64,000 bases of DNA from Candidatus Heimdallarchaeum aukensis (GCA_021513695.1 CP084166.1:1312001-1376000); one strand, 5' to 3'; shown: positions 1-17,823, numbered from the stretch's first letter. Numbers and translations: made by a program. The notes: generated from the sequence alone by a model not told the origin.

Positions 1-856
1 AAGTATTGTTTATGTATTAAAGTCAATTGTTGAACTGCCTACAGTAACAATGGGGGTAAAACAAGATTTCATTAAATTTGCAGGGCACAATATTCAAATT
101 TCAGATATGGGAGGACAAAAAAGATTTCGTGAGATTTACCTAACTACCCCTGATTTGTATTTTGAAAGAACAAAATTGGTTTTCTATGTAATTGATATTC
201 AAAATAAAAAAAGAATAGATGATTCTCTCGAATATCTGAAAAGATTACTTGCAATTTACCGTTACTTGCACGAAAAACCGTTCATTTCTATCTTTTTCCA
301 CAAATTTGATCCTGATTTATCCTACAACTTAAAATATGATATTCCACCCATAAAGGAGAAAATAGAGAAAATTTTTTCTCACTATACCGAATTTCAGTAC
401 AATTTTTTCTACACTTCTATTTACAACCCACCTAGCATATACGTGGGAATTGCTTCAACTCTATCAGAGATATTTCCAGTAATGAGTATTTTAGACGTTT
501 TACTTAAGGATTTTGCAGAATTACACGGTTTTGATGGTTTACTTATAATGGATAGTACAGGAATGTTAATTGGTCAATTCATACGAGGAGAACAAGAATC
601 ATTGGTGGAAGAAACCTATTCTGCTTTTAAAGAAGCAAGAAAGATTGAAAAAAACCCTTTCGGCAATATTGTTTTACGAAAAAATATAGCAGACCCTCCA
701 GGAGGAGAGATAGTTGTACAACAAATCTTTTTACCACACAATGATGGTTTTATCTTTTACTGGAAAAAAGAAGATACTGAAATTGATTTATCAGAGTATA
801 TGTTAAGTGAGATAACAAAAACCCTTAATCCATGGTTGTATAACCTATTATCGTGA
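1..856 (+). CDS. Rag/Gtr-family small GTPase fused to a C-terminal roadblock/LC7 domain; 5' end truncated by the window edge (frame is open to position 2)
   Basis: G3 motif DMGGQ; G4 replaced by HKFD (FFHKFDPDL), the Rag/Gtr hallmark HKxD rather than NKxD; P-loop would lie upstream of the window; C-terminal FDGLLIMDSTGMLIGQF matches the roadblock/LC7 pattern. Confidence 0.6.
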   Translation, partial: SIVYVLKSIVELPTVTMGVKQDFIKFAGHNIQISDMGGQKRFREIYLTTPDLYFERTKLVFYVIDIQNKKRIDDSLEYLKRLLAIYRYLHEKPFISIFFHKFDPDLSYNLKYDIPPIKEKIEKIFSHYTEFQYNFFYTSIYNPPSIYVGIASTLSEIFPVMSILDVLLKDFAELHGFDGLLIMDSTGMLIGQFIRGEQESLVEETYSAFKEARKIEKNPFGNIVLRKNIADPPGGEIVVQQIFLPHNDGFIFYWKKEDTEIDLSEYMLSEITKTLNPWLYNLLS

Positions 857-929: not shown

Positions 930-1448
930 ATGAAAGATAACGAATATGACCAAGAAAATAGTGGAACCAAAATTGCAAGAATTCACTTAAATGGAAAAGT
1001 AGAAGTGTTAAAAAACATTCATTTCTCTTGCAGCTCTTGTGGAGTATGTTGTAGACTTAATCGTATTCCTGTAAGAGAGGAAGATATTTTACGTTTTCAA
1101 GAACATGGTTTTGAACTAGATCAGCTATTAATTGACTTGAGCCCTGTTCTAATTCCAAGTAAAAATGTTGATGGCAATTTTATAAAAGCATATATTTTAA
1201 GGAAAAAACCATTTGTAAATGAATGTATTTTTTTGGACGATAACAATCGCTGTAGAGTTCATGAATTTAAGCCATTAGCTTGTAGACTCTATCCTTTTGC
1301 TTTAAGAAGAGAAAATGATGAAACAGTAATTATGCAAATTCATTCAAAATCTGTTTGTCCTTCAGTAAAACTAGATGTATCTGAAGAAGAATCAAATACT
1401 TTAGAATTGGTAAAACAAATGTACGAGTTATTTGATTTAGAGGAATAA
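930..1448 (+). CDS. YkgJ/UPF0153-family cysteine-cluster (CxxCxxCC) protein
   Basis: CSSCGVCCRLNRIP ... ECIFLDDNNRCRVHEFKPLACRLYPF, typical of the YkgJ Zn/Fe-chelating domain. Confidence 0.55.
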   Translation: MKDNEYDQENSGTKIARIHLNGKVEVLKNIHFSCSSCGVCCRLNRIPVREEDILRFQEHGFELDQLLIDLSPVLIPSKNVDGNFIKAYILRKKPFVNECIFLDDNNRCRVHEFKPLACRLYPFALRRENDETVIMQIHSKSVCPSVKLDVSEEESNTLELVKQMYELFDLEE

Positions 1449-1635: not shown

Positions 1636-4623
1636 ATGCAAAGAACTGGGTTTGTTTTTTTTATTTTCTTAATGCTATCTAGTCCTTTTGTTTATCCTAC
1701 ACTAGCAAAACAAGAAAATAAAATAGACTTTATGTCCAATAATAATAATCAATTGATTTCTTCAATTCAAAATAACAAAAAAATCGTTTATGCTAATGAT
1801 CTTAGTAAAACTTGGGACACTCCACTTTCTGACGAAGAGTTAAAAAAACAATTTTTAGAAGCAGAAGGGAGAGCAATTATTTCTTTTTTCAGTTTTGCAG
1901 AACAGAAAAAAGCGATTGATATACTTGAAGGTCAAGGTATAAATGTAATTCTTAAGTATAATTCTTTTCCTGGACTAAAAATTGAATACAGCTGGAAAAA
2001 AGTAACGGATATTAGTTTAGATAATTTAAGAGTAAAATATGTTTCTCAAATTGGAAAAGATACCTTTTACTCTATTTCATTAGAACAAAATAAAGATACA
2101 ACTTTAACTGGTTTAATCGATCTTTCCGAATTAAGAGCAGCTTTAGAAATAGACTTCCTCCACAATCAAAAAGATAAAAATGGAGACTATCTCTTCGGAA
2201 AGAACATTACAATTGCAGTAATGGATAGCGGTATAGAATCTTCTCTAAAAGGCCTTAATAAAAAATTTAAATATCTTGGAAACGGAGCAATTCAACCTAC
2301 TGATGAGGATAAAATTGTCTACGATTTTAATGCTGTTCCTGGTGAGGATAAAAATGATTTAAGCGGTCATGGTACTCATATAACTTCTATTCTTGCAGGG
2401 AATGGATTTTTCACTGTTGATGGAAAAGTACAATATGAGGGAGAATATGGAATAGTTCCTGAAGCATCTTTGATGAATATTAAAGTTTTGAATGCAAGTG
2501 GTTATGGGAAAGATGAGTGGTTGGTTGATGGTTTTGATAAAGCTATTGCAAATGAGTTAAACATTGTTCCTGATATTATAACTGCAAGTTTAACTTCAAT
2601 TACTTTTTTAAGTGAACATGACCCACTTAATGAAATTGTGCAAGAAGCAGCTAAAAAAGGAATAATGATAGTTACTTCTGCAGGAAATTATGGACCAACG
2701 AGTTCATCTATTGGTTCTCCAGCTGTATGGGAAAACGTTTTATCAATTGGCAGTACCTCAACTATGAAAGATATCTCACTATTCAGTTCAAGCGGTCCAA
2801 CACCATATTTAACAGCTGGAGTGGATTTAGTAGCACCAGGAAGATTAGTTTTAGGATTAAATAGTAGTACAGGAGAAAAGAGATACACATCTGGAACATC
2901 AATTTCAACACCAATAGTTTCAGGAATACTGGCTTTATTAAAACAAGCTTTTCCAGAGTACAACTCTTCACAGTTAGAATCGGCAATATTAAACACAGCA
3001 GACGATTTGAATAAGCCAATAGTTTTTCAAGGAAATGGATTAGTAGACGCTAGAGAAGCTTATTTCTGGTTAAAAAACAACCCAGGGATTACTTTTTCGA
3101 TTCTACCTAAGCGTATTTCACCTGAAAATCTATTCTTTTACTCATGTGTTGAAGGAACACAATCATCTTTCAAAGTGAAAACAATATCTAGTGATGAACA
3201 GCATTTATGGACAAATATAACTGGAGACGATGAGATAGTAGAAATCGGAGAAGAGATAGTTCTTTCAAAGGGTTGGAATATCTTTTCATTTAACATTACT
3301 ATTCCTTATAATAAACCTATTAAGAATTACCAAGCTGTAATAACTTTTACAAATTCTGAAAATTATACTGAAAATATAACAATTAATCTTCAATCTAGAT
3401 ATTACAGAGGATCGATTCTCTTTGATATTAGCCATGATAGTGATATAACAAACAATTCATGGTTTGGTGGATCGTCTCCTTATGGAGCTCATCTATATAT
3501 GGCAAGAATGTTAAAAGATAGAGGTTTTAAGATAAGCACTTTTTCTGAAGGAAACTTTTCTGATGAATTGAGCAAAAATGACATTTTGGTTATTTCAGAC
3601 CCTGAAAAGCATTTTTCTATAGATGAAAGAGAACAGATATATAATTTCATAAAAGACGGTGGTTCATTCTTGCTTTTAGTAGATAGCTATAGAATAGAAG
3701 TAGAATCTGCTAAAGAAGATCCAATTTATCCAAGTAATTATACAGCTATTGACAATTTAGTAGGTTCTCTTGGTATCACAATAGATCCCGATTTCCATTC
3801 AATGCAAACTCCTTATGCTACTGTGTTTTCTAGTGGGCATTCAGATATTACAGATGTAGAGGAAGCATTCTTTTTAGGTTCATGTTTACAATTCGATAAT
3901 GATACAAATTCAGATGTAAAACTTTCTCCTTTATCTGCGATTAATATAGGTACAGAAAAATCTCCGTTCTGGAAAATTACTGGTGTAGTTGGAGAGTATG
4001 GTAAAGGAAAAATAATTGTTTTCGGTTCAGGATACACATTCTCTAATTTTGGATTAATGTATGATGAATTCGATGTAGACTACAGAAATAGAGGTGCAAT
4101 TGGATTAGGGAGTATAAGTTATAACCATTTGTTCAGTGATGAGATGGATAAAAACAATAGAGAACTTATAAATGATACCTTTAGTTGGTTATCGACTTTC
4201 AACAGACCAATAATCGATTTTAGCTTGGATCAAGAAAAGATTCTAATTAGAGAAGAATTTACTATTTCTGTCTCAGTGACTATGACAAGTGAATTTCAAC
4301 AAGGGAATCCATATGCAACTCAATATCTTAATGGAACAATTCTTTTCAGCGACAATTCAATTAGATATGTTGTTCTCTCTGCAGTTGGAGCAGGAATTTA
4401 TGAGCTTTCTACTTCAATTTCGCGTTATGGAGAATTTACGTTATTTATTCCTTTGAAGTTAGAAGGGCACAACCCCACTGACGGGAGAATAGACTTGTTT
4501 TGTGATGTTGAACTTTGGGATCAACAACAAGAAATTGCAAACATAGCAAACCTTGTTCTCACTTTATTTTTCATTGTTCTGCTTGGTTTACCTTTTGTTA
4601 ATTATCGCTTCAAAAATAAATAA
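1636..4623 (+). CDS. secreted subtilisin-like (S8) serine protease with large C-terminal extension and C-terminal TM anchor
   Basis: N-terminal signal peptide; catalytic triad motifs AVMDSGI, GHGTHITS, SGTSISTP; C-terminus LVLTLFFIVLLGLPFVNYRFKNK. Confidence 0.85.
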   Translation: MQRTGFVFFIFLMLSSPFVYPTLAKQENKIDFMSNNNNQLISSIQNNKKIVYANDLSKTWDTPLSDEELKKQFLEAEGRAIISFFSFAEQKKAIDILEGQGINVILKYNSFPGLKIEYSWKKVTDISLDNLRVKYVSQIGKDTFYSISLEQNKDTTLTGLIDLSELRAALEIDFLHNQKDKNGDYLFGKNITIAVMDSGIESSLKGLNKKFKYLGNGAIQPTDEDKIVYDFNAVPGEDKNDLSGHGTHITSILAGNGFFTVDGKVQYEGEYGIVPEASLMNIKVLNASGYGKDEWLVDGFDKAIANELNIVPDIITASLTSITFLSEHDPLNEIVQEAAKKGIMIVTSAGNYGPTSSSIGSPAVWENVLSIGSTSTMKDISLFSSSGPTPYLTAGVDLVAPGRLVLGLNSSTGEKRYTSGTSISTPIVSGILALLKQAFPEYNSSQLESAILNTADDLNKPIVFQGNGLVDAREAYFWLKNNPGITFSILPKRISPENLFFYSCVEGTQSSFKVKTISSDEQHLWTNITGDDEIVEIGEEIVLSKGWNIFSFNITIPYNKPIKNYQAVITFTNSENYTENITINLQSRYYRGSILFDISHDSDITNNSWFGGSSPYGAHLYMARMLKDRGFKISTFSEGNFSDELSKNDILVISDPEKHFSIDEREQIYNFIKDGGSFLLLVDSYRIEVESAKEDPIYPSNYTAIDNLVGSLGITIDPDFHSMQTPYATVFSSGHSDITDVEEAFFLGSCLQFDNDTNSDVKLSPLSAINIGTEKSPFWKITGVVGEYGKGKIIVFGSGYTFSNFGLMYDEFDVDYRNRGAIGLGSISYNHLFSDEMDKNNRELINDTFSWLSTFNRPIIDFSLDQEKILIREEFTISVSVTMTSEFQQGNPYATQYLNGTILFSDNSIRYVVLSAVGAGIYELSTSISRYGEFTLFIPLKLEGHNPTDGRIDLFCDVELWDQQQEIANIANLVLTLFFIVLLGLPFVNYRFKNK

Positions 4624-5081: not shown

Positions 5082-5242
5082 GAAATGATAAACCAGAATT
5101 TTTCTGTTAATTATCATTTCTATTTTTTATAAAACATTCAATTTTTCTACTCTGATTAAAGAAAACCACATTAACTTTATTAATTTCTTTTCGCTTAAAG
5201 AAATACTTTTTTATGTATTATAATTAATTATCTTTGAAAGCT

Positions 5243-6529
5243 ATGACATTAAAGATATTCCTTACAATAGGAGGTTTTTTTGTCTTAGATGACAATAATG
5301 ATGTTATATCTACTAAGACTTTTGAACCTGACCCAGTGTATGTTAGTACAAAGATCTTTAATTTAGAAAGATATAATGAATCTGAAGAATTAAATGCGAT
5401 TCTAGAAGAATATGCTGACACGGAAATTAAAACTAACTCTAGTTTAGTTCGTGATTTTATTCGTTCAAGAAGAAGGAAAGTTTCTTTAGATAATTCATCA
5501 GATGACTTCTATTCATTTCAAAGTTCATTATTTAGCAATTTAGCAAAACATACTAGTATTAAAACAGATGAGATTTATCATCAACTTGTTCGTGAAACTA
5601 ATATATTAATATCAAAAAAACGTGTTGCTGTCGCTAGTCAACGAACTGATAAAATGGTTGTCCATGCTATATTAAGTTTGGATGATATTGTTACTACAAT
5701 CAATCTTTTTATGAGTCGGATTCGAGAATGGTATGGGATTCATTTTCCTGAAATTTTAAAGGAAGTTGAAAACCATGAAACATTTTGCAAGATAATTACA
5801 GAAATTGGAGCAAGACAATTCTACTCAAAAAAAGCATTAGAAGAGTATGGATTTTCTGCTAAAAAAACAGAAAGGATCTATAATTTAGCAAAAAGTTCTA
5901 TGGGCGCAGAATATGATAACAAAGACCTTCTCCCTCTACAACGCTTAGCTCAGCAGACTCTACAATTATTCGAAGAAAAGCGTATGCTCGAAAATTGGAT
6001 AGATGAGCAAGTCAATAAGATTGCTCCTAATTTAAAAGCAATTGTTGGTTCAGCTATTACAGCAAGACTTATCGCTCTTGCTGGAGGTCTTCAAGAGATG
6101 GCACTTCTTCCTTCTTCTACAATTCAACTTCTTGGTGCAGAGAAAGCTCTCTTTAGAGCCTTAAAGACAGGTGCAAAACCCCCTAAACATGGTGTCATTT
6201 ATCAGACTCCTGAACTTCACAGTTGTAAATGGTGGCAAAGAGGTAACATCGCAAGAGCTATTGCTGGAAAATTGACAATTGCTGCCAGAATTGACGCTTT
6301 CCAAGGAGAATACAGAGGAGACGAATTAAAGATGGACCTCGATCAGAAAATTGAGGAAATAAAGGAGAAATATAGTGAACCTCCACAAGGAAAAAAAGAC
6401 CCTGCTCTAATACGTCAGCAAAGACCCCGCGGAAAACCAAAATCTCGATCAAGACAAAAAAACTATGATAAATCCAAAAGTAGGAAACACAAAGGTGGCA
6501 AAAACTATTCCAAAAAAGGAAAAAAATAG
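5243..6529 (+). CDS. nop5: Nop56/58 (Nop5) C/D-box sRNP core protein with lysine-rich KKE/D-like C-terminal tail
   Basis: NOP-domain region (ALFRALKTGAKPPKHGVIYQ); tail PRGKPKSRSRQKNYDKSKSRKHKGGKNYSKKGKK; directly upstream of fibrillarin (conserved archaeal operon); ATG at 5243 follows a TTG-opened ORF. Confidence 0.85.
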   Translation: MTLKIFLTIGGFFVLDDNNDVISTKTFEPDPVYVSTKIFNLERYNESEELNAILEEYADTEIKTNSSLVRDFIRSRRRKVSLDNSSDDFYSFQSSLFSNLAKHTSIKTDEIYHQLVRETNILISKKRVAVASQRTDKMVVHAILSLDDIVTTINLFMSRIREWYGIHFPEILKEVENHETFCKIITEIGARQFYSKKALEEYGFSAKKTERIYNLAKSSMGAEYDNKDLLPLQRLAQQTLQLFEEKRMLENWIDEQVNKIAPNLKAIVGSAITARLIALAGGLQEMALLPSSTIQLLGAEKALFRALKTGAKPPKHGVIYQTPELHSCKWWQRGNIARAIAGKLTIAARIDAFQGEYRGDELKMDLDQKIEEIKEKYSEPPQGKKDPALIRQQRPRGKPKSRSRQKNYDKSKSRKHKGGKNYSKKGKK

Positions 6530-6539
6530 GTGACAAATA

Positions 6540-7226
6540 ATGGTAGAACTAAAAAAACACAAATTTGAAAATCTTTTCTGGTTGCATTTTTCAGATGGAA
6601 AGGTTCGATTAGCTACTAAAAACAGCGATCCAGGTAAAAAAGTGTATACAGAAAGGCTCGTAAGTGTAGATGGAAATGAATATAGAACATTTGACCCCTA
6701 CAAAAGTAAATTAGCTGCCGCAATTAGATCGGACTTACAAAACTTTCCTTTTGATGAAGGAGTTAAAGTTCTTTATCTAGGTGCTGCATCAGGAACTACT
6801 GTTTCTCATGTTTCAGATATCATAGGAGATGATGGAGAGATTTATGCAGTAGAATTCTCTCCAAGATCATTAAGAGATTTAGTAACAGTAGCTGAAAGAA
6901 GAAAAAATATTATTCCTATTTTAGCTGATGCAAGGTATCCTGAGACTTACTCTTTCACTGTCCCCCAAGTTGACATTGTCTTTGAGGACGTAGCACAACC
7001 TTTTCAGACTGAGATTTTATGGGTAAATGTTCAAACCTTCCTTAAAAAAGGAGGCTTCTTCTTTATAGCTGTAAAAGCAAGAAGCATAGATGTTACAACT
7101 AGCCCAAAAGTTATTTTTGAACGAGTTAAAAAAGAGATTCTTGAATATGGATTAGAGATAGTCGAAGAAATCAACTTAGAACAATATGAAAAAGATCACA
7201 TGATGTTCGTGGGTAAAAAACCTTAA
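6540..7226 (+). CDS. flpA: fibrillarin (rRNA/tRNA 2'-O-methyltransferase)
   Basis: SAM-binding motif VLYLGAASGTTVSHVSD; about 228 aa; follows nop5 with a 10-nt gap and an aggtga SD. Confidence 0.9.
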   Translation: MVELKKHKFENLFWLHFSDGKVRLATKNSDPGKKVYTERLVSVDGNEYRTFDPYKSKLAAAIRSDLQNFPFDEGVKVLYLGAASGTTVSHVSDIIGDDGEIYAVEFSPRSLRDLVTVAERRKNIIPILADARYPETYSFTVPQVDIVFEDVAQPFQTEILWVNVQTFLKKGGFFFIAVKARSIDVTTSPKVIFERVKKEILEYGLEIVEEINLEQYEKDHMMFVGKKP

Positions 7227-8353: not shown

Positions 8354-9946
8354 TCAAAGAATTTTACTCATATATGGGCCATCTCTTTCGTAGCCTAGTT
8401 TTCTATAATAATCTCTTACACCAACGCCAGAGATGACAGAAATTTTCTTATAACCTTTTTCGACTCCAATGTCCTCAGCTTTCTGAACTAGTTCTTTTCC
8501 AAAACCTCTATGCTGCCATTCATATTCTTCTTCTCCTTTTTTATGAACAGAAAGGGATTCACCGTAAACATGTAACTCTCTGATAACGATTGTAGGTTGA
8601 GATAGAAATTCAGGTCGATATTTATCCTCACTTAACTCTCTCAGTCGAAGGAAACCAATAATTACATCATGGTTTGTTTCTTCAAAAGACAAAAAGTATT
8701 CAATTCCCTTACTTGCTTTATATTTTCTTTTTACTAGTTCAATTGACTGAGGATCAAATTCTCCTTTGTTCTTGTAGAGATAATGACCAACTTCTCTACA
8801 TCTAATACACCTACACTTTTTGCCTTGTGATTCCATTAAAGCTTGTACATCAAGCCTTAAATCACTTTTTTTGGGACCAGCAACTATTTGATGTGCAGGA
8901 ATGTCTCTTAAAATTCTTTTTATTCGCACGTAAGGAGGAACAAATTCTTTTATTTTGGCAATGAGTTTAATCGTTTCTTCATCTGTTAAAGCTTGGTATT
9001 CTCCTTTTTTCCATAGGTCATAAAGTTTTGTACCAGGTATAACCATTGTAGGATAAATCTTAATTTCATCAGGTTGATAATCTTGAGATTGAAAAATTGT
9101 TTTAAAAGCTTCTATATCTCTTTCTTTTGTTGAACCTGGGAGTCCAGGCATCATATGTGCTGTTATTTTCAATCCTGCATCTTTTGTAAGCTGAATAGCT
9201 CTGATTGAATCAGTAACAGTATGCCCCCTAATCATTTTTTCGAAAACATCATCATAAACTGTTTGAATACCTAGTTCAAGTCTTGTAACACCATAATTTA
9301 ACAATTCATCTATCGTTTGTTTATCTATTTGATCTGGTCTCGTTTCTGCAGTTAACCCAACACATCGATGTTTAGCGTGTTCATTAATTTCATGAGCTTG
9401 CTCTATTGTATCAGAATCTACCCCATTAAATCCATCAAACATTCTTCTAATAAACCATTCTTGGTATTCTTTCGGTTGGTAAGTAAAAGTTCCTCCCATA
9501 ATAATAGCATCTATTTTTTCTGTAGAATGACCTATAGCTTCTAACTGATTAATCCTTTCAGTAACTTGAAGATAAGGGTCATAGTTATTTCTTATCCCTC
9601 TTCTTGATGTAGGTTCATAACCTGTATAACTTTGAGGTCTGTCAACATCTGGTCCCCCAGGACACATAATGCATTTACCATGAGGACAAGCCCAAGGCCT
9701 AGTCATTACTGCGACGATTGCCACACCAGATAGTGTTCTAACTCTTCTTTTCATTAAATAAGGACGAAGTTTTTCTAGTTCTTCATCATTACATATAGCG
9801 AGAATATCACTATTTCTAGGGAAAAAGGATAGAGAATACTCTTTAGATATCTTTCTTTTAATTTGATCAACGATTTTATCAGTTAATTTAGACTGACTCA
9901 ACAACTGTTTTTTAATTTCAGTAAAAGCAGAAAGAGATTTGTTCAT
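8354..9946 (-). CDS. elp3: Elp3 homologue (radical-SAM plus GNAT tRNA-modification enzyme)
   Basis: N-terminal basic region; radical-SAM Cys cluster CPHGKCIMCPGGPD; SYTGYEPTSRR; C-terminal GNAT region (QHRGFGKELV). Confidence 0.85.
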   Translation of the reverse strand: MNKSLSAFTEIKKQLLSQSKLTDKIVDQIKRKISKEYSLSFFPRNSDILAICNDEELEKLRPYLMKRRVRTLSGVAIVAVMTRPWACPHGKCIMCPGGPDVDRPQSYTGYEPTSRRGIRNNYDPYLQVTERINQLEAIGHSTEKIDAIIMGGTFTYQPKEYQEWFIRRMFDGFNGVDSDTIEQAHEINEHAKHRCVGLTAETRPDQIDKQTIDELLNYGVTRLELGIQTVYDDVFEKMIRGHTVTDSIRAIQLTKDAGLKITAHMMPGLPGSTKERDIEAFKTIFQSQDYQPDEIKIYPTMVIPGTKLYDLWKKGEYQALTDEETIKLIAKIKEFVPPYVRIKRILRDIPAHQIVAGPKKSDLRLDVQALMESQGKKCRCIRCREVGHYLYKNKGEFDPQSIELVKRKYKASKGIEYFLSFEETNHDVIIGFLRLRELSEDKYRPEFLSQPTIVIRELHVYGESLSVHKKGEEEYEWQHRGFGKELVQKAEDIGVEKGYKKISVISGVGVRDYYRKLGYERDGPYMSKIL

Positions 9947-17205: not shown

Positions 17206-17823
17206 TTGATAAAAGACAAATGTATCATGTCAGCAAAATATTTCTGTCCTAACTGTGGTGCAGCAGTCACCCCAGAAGATAAATTTTGTCAGAACTGCGG
17301 AACAAAACTAGAAAATGTACAAGGAGTTTCTGCTCCAGCTTATCAAGCTCCAGTCTCACAATCTGGTCCAGTAACACCTGCTCCACCATATCAACAACCG
17401 AGTCAACAATATCAACCTTATCAACCTTATGTTGAAAGTCAAAGAATACAACAAGTTCGCGTGGTAGATCCTTCTCAATATATGCAAATAAAAGCTTCTT
17501 TAGGCAACAGATGTTTAGCCAATTTGATTGATTCTATAATTTGGTCTTTGATTTCTAGTTTTACGGGAGGGCTAGGTGCTTGTGCTGTACCTTTTAAAGA
17601 CTCTATCCCAGAAGAAGGTAAATCTTTTGGAAAACAAGCAATGCATATACGAGTAGTAGATTATAACACAGGTAAAGCAATGACTGTTGGTCAAGGATTT
17701 GTAAGAAATTGCTTAGGTTATTTAGTAACGCTAGGATTTGATATTTTCGTTCCTATTTGTACAAGTGATGGCAGAAGAGTTGGAGATTACCTAGCAGGAA
17801 CAATAGTAATCGAAGATATGTAA
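17206..17823 (+). CDS. zinc-ribbon plus Pro/Gln-rich linker plus RDD-family membrane domain protein
   Basis: CPNCGAAVTPEDKFCQNCG; PQ-rich low-complexity stretch; C-terminal hydrophobic RDD-like region. Confidence 0.5.
   Translation: MIKDKCIMSAKYFCPNCGAAVTPEDKFCQNCGTKLENVQGVSAPAYQAPVSQSGPVTPAPPYQQPSQQYQPYQPYVESQRIQQVRVVDPSQYMQIKASLGNRCLANLIDSIIWSLISSFTGGLGACAVPFKDSIPEEGKSFGKQAMHIRVVDYNTGKAMTVGQGFVRNCLGYLVTLGFDIFVPICTSDGRRVGDYLAGTIVIEDM

Follow-up and report, generated by a model that had tools for sequence, protein, structure and literature searches.

The window, which is the whole 64-kb stretch of Candidatus Heimdallarchaeum aukensis DNA that was analysed, opens within a real gene, which encodes a small GTPase of the Rag/Gtr type joined to a roadblock domain. 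The initial annotation had read the gene in this way and was right, and the find is an ordinary one, since the family is already known to be abundant in Asgard archaea. The best explanation is a single-copy gene of a Heimdallarchaeaceae archaeon, with the window starting inside it. Taken as a whole, we consider it very probable that the product of this gene is a member of the Asgard RagGtr family, a guanine-nucleotide switch in which an N-terminal helix-hairpin-helix (HhH)/SAM-like domain, a Rag-type G domain and a roadblock domain follow one another.

The 3' part of the gene lies at 2..856 on the + strand and consists of 284 codons and a TGA stop at 854-856. Frame 2 of this strand contains no stop from base 2 up to that TGA (2-853), in agreement with the earlier remark that it stays open as far as the window edge. 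The G+C content of the window is 31%, and its base composition gives a chance of 0.078 per codon of meeting a stop (about one per 13 codons), so that 285 open codons would arise with a probability of about 1e-10. The ATG at base 50, given as the start in the ORF listing, is internal and is not the gene start. Judged by its orthologues, the fragment appears to make up the last 284 residues of a protein about 386 aa long. The closest protein found in a large protein database was 96% rather than 100% identical to the fragment; this is P0001, a 386 aa protein from a JGI metagenome. A second 386 aa orthologue, P0002 (Candidatus Heimdallarchaeum endolithica locus K9W46_06050), is 91% identical, and further Heimdallarchaeaceae orthologues show 42-62% identity. 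In both P0001 and P0002 the P-loop GLSQAGKT stands immediately before SIVYVLK, the first residues of the window, which implies that the window cuts the gene one residue past the P-loop. The third base of the P-loop Thr codon is base 1 of the window, and comparison with the orthologues puts about 102 codons, comprising the HhH domain and the P-loop, 5' of that base. The expectation that a P-loop would lie upstream of the window is in keeping with GLSQAGKTS in orthologues 96% and 91% identical to the fragment.

Because the gene is seen only in part and its listed ORF begins at an internal ATG, the fragment could be taken for a decaying or truncated remnant rather than a functional gene. That reading is extremely improbable, as the frame is open to the edge, the orthologues are full length (386-397 aa) in at least five lineages, and every G motif is intact. 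Substitutions are also strongly synonymous. Between the fragment and the H. endolithica orthologue, which are 87% identical at the nucleotide level, 75 of the 100 differing codons are synonymous and 83 of the 111 nucleotide differences fall at codon position three, a pattern that indicates a functional gene under purifying selection.

The GTPase domain occupies 2..472 (+ strand), as delimited by alignment of the orthologues and by the secondary structure of residues 103-259 in the AlphaFold model of P0001. Within the window it extends from the residue that follows the P-loop GKT to the end of helix alpha5. Switch I with the G2 motif (PTVTMG, containing the conserved Thr) is found at 38..55, where P and T are nearly invariant among 80 family members. 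The G3/switch II motif DMGGQ, of the DxxGQ form with a catalytic-type Gln, lies at 104..118, and D, both glycines and Q show little or no variation across the family. The G4 motif at 299..310 reads HKFD, with H202, K203 and D205 nearly invariant in the family. The same alignment column holds HKMD or HKVD in RagA, RagC and Gtr1 and NKQD in Arf; the motif is accordingly of the HKxD form characteristic of RagA/Gtr1 and not NKxD, as had been noted from the sequence. The G5 motif TSIY (413..424), in which T240, S241 and I242 are invariant in the subfamily, aligns with the TSIW/TSIY of RagA, Gtr1 and RagC, the Rag form being TSIWD/TSIYD. All of these motifs are encoded on the + strand.

Profile searches place the fragment in the Rag family. 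Pfam Gtr1_RagA (PF04670) matches residues 14-195 over profile positions 32-214 of 232 with 67.5 bits against a cut-off of 22, while Arf (PF00025) comes second at 36.8 bits, also over its cut-off. In four full-length orthologues Gtr1_RagA is again the top family in each (75-81 bits, versus 51-60 bits for Arf). The HMM comparison suggested in the initial annotation therefore favours Gtr1_RagA. A sequence search of the PDB ranked 8yl2 (4e-37) and 8zla/9m28 (5e-23), described as 'GTP-binding proteins', first, followed by human RagA (3e-11), Arf1 (1e-8) and Gtr1 (3e-8).

Structural comparison used an AlphaFold2 model of P0001, built from an 80-sequence alignment (mean pLDDT 82.6, pTM 0.68). When it was compared with the PDB by Foldseek, the first three ranks were taken by 8yl2 (E 8e-23, target-normalised TM of 0.82 over about 305 columns), the title of which is 'Homo Tetrameric RagA-like small GTPase from Asgard Lokiarchaeota (LokiRagO) in complex with GTP'. 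Chains of RagA, RagC, Gtr1 and Gtr2 filled ranks 4-39 with 300-320 aligned columns and TM values of about 0.61-0.79, most of them at least 0.7; within this range, at ranks 14 and 18, were the entries for the monomeric LokiRagM (8zla and 9m28), with TM values of only 0.44-0.45. Arf/Arl chains appeared first at rank 40 and were matched over the G domain alone.

Pairwise scores of the G domain are about equal and do not decide between Rag and Arf: P0001 gave 39.8 bits with human ARF1 and 33.7 with RagA, and the window fragment 25.9 and 26.7 bits, respectively. The decision comes from discrete characters. In a MAFFT alignment the window protein and its Asgard relatives share with RagA, RagC and Gtr1 the HKxD motif, the TSI form of G5, a switch II/alpha2 region that is longer by four residues, and an insertion between G4 and G5, and none of these four characters occurs in Arf, Sar, Ras, Rab, Ran or MglA. 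The references used for this comparison, eukaryotic proteins and MglA, were validated, nine of them by their Pfam family scores (163-336 bits) and MglA by an exact match to PDB chains.

The two families that compete with Rag for this protein are Arf and MglA, and the trees bear on both. A neighbour-joining (NJ) tree of 177 G-domain columns (Scoredist distances, gaps ignored, 1000 bootstraps) joined the Asgard family to Rag in 87% of replicates, to Arf/Sar in 2.8%, and to Rag together with MglA in 1.6%. Asgard small GTPases have been divided into the classes ArfL, ArfR, RasL, RagGtr, MglA1 and MglA2-5 (Vargova et al., bioRxiv 10.1101/2024.02.28.582541). With labelled G-domain sequences taken from Table S3 of that preprint, a clade of the query, the Asgard RagGtr sequences, human RagA/RagC and yeast Gtr1 received 91.9% bootstrap support, and groupings of the query with the ArfL, Arf/Sar or MglA sequences used received 0%. 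These trees are distance-based, contain few references, and resolve Asgard monophyly and the position of the eukaryotic Rags poorly (26-66%). On the placement that the initial annotation had proposed to test, Rag as opposed to Arf or MglA, both nevertheless speak for Rag. Phmmer searches with the same labelled sequences agree: the window G domain scored 49-70 bits against eleven RagGtr-labelled Helarchaeal sequences and had no reportable match to the ArfL- and MglA-labelled ones taken from the table, with which P0001 reached at most 17 bits.

An Arf-family (Arf/Arl/Sar-like) GTPase with a superficial likeness to Rag would account for the Arf profile scores above the cut-off, the slightly higher pairwise score of the P0001 G domain with ARF1, and the name 'ADP-ribosylation factor-like protein' that NCBI gives to the orthologues. 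We think it unlikely to a marked degree. The Gtr1_RagA profile scores above Arf both in the window protein and in each of its close orthologues, G4 is HKFD and G5 is TSI rather than CAT/SA, and switch II carries an insertion of Rag length. The orthologues, moreover, have 386 aa with a predicted C-terminal roadblock domain, as opposed to a single domain of about 180 aa, and at their N-terminus stands an HhH domain where Arf proteins have a myristoylated or amphipathic helix; to this is added the scant bootstrap support for an Arf/Sar grouping in either tree. The literature, too, sets such Asgard proteins apart from the Arf clade (PMC11914678; bioRxiv 10.1101/2024.02.28.582541). Membership in the Asgard ArfL class specifically was also considered and rejected, given the low scores and 0% bootstrap with the ArfL-labelled sequences used and the lack of NKQD. 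A fusion of GTPase and roadblock domain could in principle also derive from MglB, itself a roadblock protein, and the small GTPase with which it forms a pair (PMC9481161), in which case the protein would be an MglA-type polarity GTPase joined to its own MglB-like roadblock GAP as a self-regulating module. This derivation is scarcely credible, since Myxococcus xanthus MglA is among the most distant references, like Ras, Rab and Ran (Scoredist 2.65, versus 1.87 for RagA), the four Asgard sequences labelled MglA1 or MglA2-5 in the part of the table used gave no phmmer match, the tree support is negligible, and the Foldseek alignments to Rag/Gtr chains cover both domains, with order and geometry as in Rag. 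A Rag/Gtr-type GTPase is the reading retained here.

The C-terminal roadblock-type domain is at 476..853 (+ strand). DSSP of the P0001 model predicts an alpha-beta-beta-alpha-beta-beta-beta-alpha order of elements (H261-277, E281-286, E291-296, H301-316, E325-331, E337-345, E350-357 and H367-385), and pLDDT in this domain is a moderate 72-87. The segment FDGLLIMDSTGMLIGQF at 530..580 (+ strand), quoted in the initial annotation as a roadblock/LC7-like core, corresponds to strands beta1 and beta2 of the domain in the model. Pfam Robl_LC7 (PF03259) did not match the C-terminal half even at E <= 10, and the roadblock assignment is therefore one at the level of the fold. Of the earlier claim, the roadblock-like character of the C-terminal half stands on the predicted fold and on Foldseek alignments that span both domains, while a match to the Roadblock profile was not obtained. 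The domain that follows the G domain is thus predicted to have roadblock topology.

The orthologues carry about 87 residues ahead of the G domain, including an invariant G-I-G hairpin. Pfam HHH_5 scored 22.8-23.4 bits on them, which is under its cut-off of 27, and a search with a profile of the domain reached Dpo4-type polymerases, in their HhH, at 4e-5. AlphaFold models the domain confidently (pLDDT 91.9) with five helices, and a Gly-hydrophobic-Gly hairpin between two helices within a five-helix bundle is what defines an HhH/SAM-like domain. Foldseek superposed 58-60 residues at 1.4-2.0 A on the thumbs of Y-family polymerases, NusA AR2 and the N-terminal domain of Rad51, with weak E-values of 0.03-0.3. 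Among 269 fetched family proteins, about 40 matched an HMM of the domain, as did 32 of the 98 family ORFs found in the fetched loci; ORFs without the GTPase never matched it. Carriers were named from Thor-, Hod-, Odin-, Hel- and Lokiarchaeia, which makes the architecture of HhH, Rag-like and roadblock domains Asgard-wide. The Helarchaeal RagGtr sequence NVM28125.1 has an N-terminal extension that does not match this HMM. A literature search for Asgard, helix-hairpin-helix and small GTPase in combination found nothing, and published orthologue tables may contain the architecture.

Acidic and basic residues are about equal in number in the HhH domain of P0001; as the domain is not markedly basic, DNA binding by it is uncertain. 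A nucleic acid is one possibility for its ligand, and protein-protein association of the SAM type is the other. The HhH-bearing proteins span Heimdall, Hod, Thor, Odin, Hel and Loki and make up about one third of the fetched family members. Whether they constitute an undescribed, Asgard-wide class of Rag-type GTPases, in which the switch and roadblock are coupled to a nucleic-acid-binding or SAM-like polymerising domain, is a speculation that we put forward with considerable doubt. If it were true, a Rag-like switch would operate on DNA or RNA or on a polymeric scaffold, and not on a membrane-bound Ragulator. The HhH domain is the only aspect of the protein that is possibly worth pursuing, in that its ligand could hint at what such switches governed before the lysosome and before TORC1.

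As reconstructed from the orthologues, the full protein would consist of the N-terminal HhH/SAM-like domain, the Rag-type G domain and the C-terminal roadblock domain. It would act as a guanine-nucleotide switch, and we infer GTP binding and hydrolysis from motifs G2-G5, which are intact in the window, from G1 in the orthologues, and from the retained glutamine of DxxGQ. The roadblock domain probably serves as a platform for oligomerisation or docking, the role it has in the dimers RagA-RagC and Gtr1-Gtr2 and in the crystallised, homotetrameric Lokiarchaeal homologue. Self-association is likelier than a fixed heterodimer because no partner Rag gene is adjacent. Through the HhH domain, the switch would be tethered to a partner, either a nucleic acid or a protein. 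Like the nucleotide chemistry, the oligomeric state and the role of the HhH domain are inferred.

With the Asgard RagGtr GTPases, as represented by the labelled sequences taken from Table S3, the window protein shares the HKxD and TSI motifs, scores of 49-70 bits, fusion to a roadblock domain, a range confined to Asgard archaea and the occurrence of many paralogues per genome. It differs in G3, which is SDMGGQ as opposed to WDLGGQ in the family, and in the N-terminal HhH/SAM-like domain of its subfamily; the architectures described by Tran et al. (PMC10933270) are longin and/or roadblock fusions. LokiRagO (8YL2) is both its best sequence match and its best fold match, and the G domain precedes the roadblock domain in both proteins. 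However, identity is 28%, and 8YL2 has no HhH domain, its N-terminus being a short helix only. The solved Loki homologues include one homotetramer (8yl2) and one monomer (LokiRagM), and our literature search found no paper for LokiRagO, LokiRagM or 8YL2. RagA/B, RagC/D and Gtr1/Gtr2 have the same two-domain architecture, HKxD, TSI, the longer switch II and membership in PF04670. Identity to these eukaryotic proteins is 15-20%, with target-normalised TM values for the predicted fold in the range given above, and the HhH domain of the orthologues is absent from the eukaryotic Rag/Gtr chains compared. Eukaryotic Rags are obligate heterodimers of an A-type and a C-type chain that dock on Ragulator/EGO and function in TORC1 signalling, features of which the present data on the window protein give no sign. 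Arf, ArfL and ArfR are P-loop small GTPases of the same type with DxGGQ and comparable pairwise scores over the G domain. Arf and ArfL, though, as described in the parts of the preprint used, have NKxD, lack the Rag-type insertions and the C-terminal roadblock domain, and are separate in the tree, and ArfL often has an N-terminal longin domain.

The kind of protein encoded here is already known, having been catalogued, with hundreds of relatives and crystal structures. Asgard archaea have an abundance of Rag-family GTPases to which a longin or roadblock domain is fused (Liu et al., bioRxiv 10.1101/2020.10.19.343400), Rag-like GTPase-roadblock architectures are present in MK-D1 (Tran et al. 2024, PMC10933270), and in the analysis of Vargova et al. 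(bioRxiv 10.1101/2024.02.28.582541) the eukaryotic Rags branch within the RagGtr sequences of Asgard archaea. Our searches show the same abundance. A profile search recovered 128 family proteins among 8,000 candidates scored, exhaustive phmmer found 713 representative clusters at E <= 0.001 (of which only P0001 and P0009 had E-values below 1e-30), and a scan of one genome per species returned at least 494 relatives, essentially all of them in Asgard MAGs. Together with PDB entries 8YL2, 8ZLA and 9M28, these surveys confirm the statement, made when the gene was first read, that Rag-like GTPases are reported in Asgard archaea. The window gene adds one more well-supported case of a Rag-type GTPase-roadblock architecture that predates eukaryotes and opens no new question.

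Two observations concern the reach of these searches. The genome scan returned no Heimdallarchaeum locus, even though the H. endolithica gene, 88-91% identical, contains the pattern FYVIDIQN; masking of this region, or its absence from the genome collection scanned, may be the reason. An HhH-bearing RagGtr-type gene (DATKTP010000193.1; protein P0016) was found in a MAG labelled Candidatus Deferrimicrobium sp., which we take to be a bacterial name. As all other matches are Asgard, this case looks like mis-binning or contamination and not transfer.

The suggestion that the gene is a candidate for the archaeal ancestry of the Rag-Ragulator module overreaches. Within the labelled RagGtr set taken from Table S3, the Helarchaeal protein NVM31601.1 scored 67 bits with human RagA and 65 with yeast Gtr1, and NVM28426.1, also Helarchaeal, 46 and 51 bits, respectively. 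The window protein and P0001 scored 28-33 bits with RagA (25-33 with RagA/Gtr1 together), in the lower half of that set, so that RagA resembles other Asgard RagGtr proteins about twice as closely. In the NJ tree with these labels, RagA and Gtr1 tended to join NVM31601 and NVM28426 (47%), and the query fell in a large divergent Asgard group (44%). By these comparisons the window protein is not among the Asgard Rags nearest to the eukaryotic ones but a relatively distant cousin. On sequence grounds, and among the labelled sequences used, NVM31601.1 and NVM28426.1 would be better candidates for Rag ancestry. Both of these have FDCGGQ and SPDAKI motifs and are much nearer to RagA/Gtr1 than is the bulk of the family.

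The genomic surroundings weaken the ancestry claim further, as neither a Ragulator-like gene nor another Rag gene was found close by. When all six-frame ORFs of the 64-kb window with a length of 40 aa or more were searched with a family HMM, only the GTPase gene itself matched, and a Pfam scan of 10 small window ORFs detected no roadblock, longin or GTPase family. No second family member stands beside the orthologues in the neighbourhoods examined, and no heterodimer partner, Ragulator-like gene or GAP/GEF gene was seen near the window gene or at the orthologue loci examined. With no paralogue nearby and no roadblock or longin domain in the small ORFs, there is no local evidence for a Rag-Ragulator module. 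Elsewhere in the family, two GTPase ORFs of the family lie no more than a few kb apart in 12 of 86 fetched loci (among L007-L086), and such tandem paralogues could form heterodimers.

Gene order in the window matches that on the H. endolithica chromosome, where a rhomboid gene lies upstream of the GTPase and genes for a CxxCxxCC protein, an S8 peptidase, Nop56/58 and fibrillarin lie downstream. The order FtsJ-Trm1-RNase HII-Rhomboid-GTPase is kept in three Heimdallarchaeaceae lineages and was not found around a distant metagenomic HhH-bearing relative. It was therefore treated as inherited synteny. The rhomboid protease gene is directly upstream of the GTPase in L001 (9261-9896), L002 (7241-7927) and L004 (7263-7898, inverted), loci from three Heimdallarchaeaceae lineages with GTPases 42-91% identical to the window protein. 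This adjacency, which is gone around the distant HhH-bearing relative, is the only hint of a connection to membranes.

Downstream of the GTPase gene by 74 nt, at 930-1448 (+ strand), is the gene for a 172 aa CxxCxxCC protein of the YkgJ type (zinc/iron-binding). Its counterpart also adjoins the GTPase gene in L001 and, inverted, in L002, and is missing in L004. A subtilisin-like S8 peptidase of 995 aa with a hydrophobic N- and C-terminus is encoded at 1636-4623 (+); its orthologue in L001 has matches to ABC_transp_aux and DUF4350, and in L002 it is on the other side of the cluster. Orthology with L001 identified the adjoining Nop56/58 and fibrillarin genes at 5234-7226 (+) and a 530 aa ELP3-like radical-SAM/acetyltransferase at 8354-9946 (-). 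In conjunction with the synteny, these genes confirm that the DNA derives from an archaeon near Heimdallarchaeum, and the GTPase result confirms a Heimdallarchaeaceae (Asgard) genome as its origin. Farther along the window, and unrelated to the GTPase, are a zinc-ribbon and RDD-family membrane protein at 17206-17823 (+) and, at 42635-43279 (-), a 214 aa N-terminal fragment of an AAA_23/SMC_N-type ATPase or small ORF.
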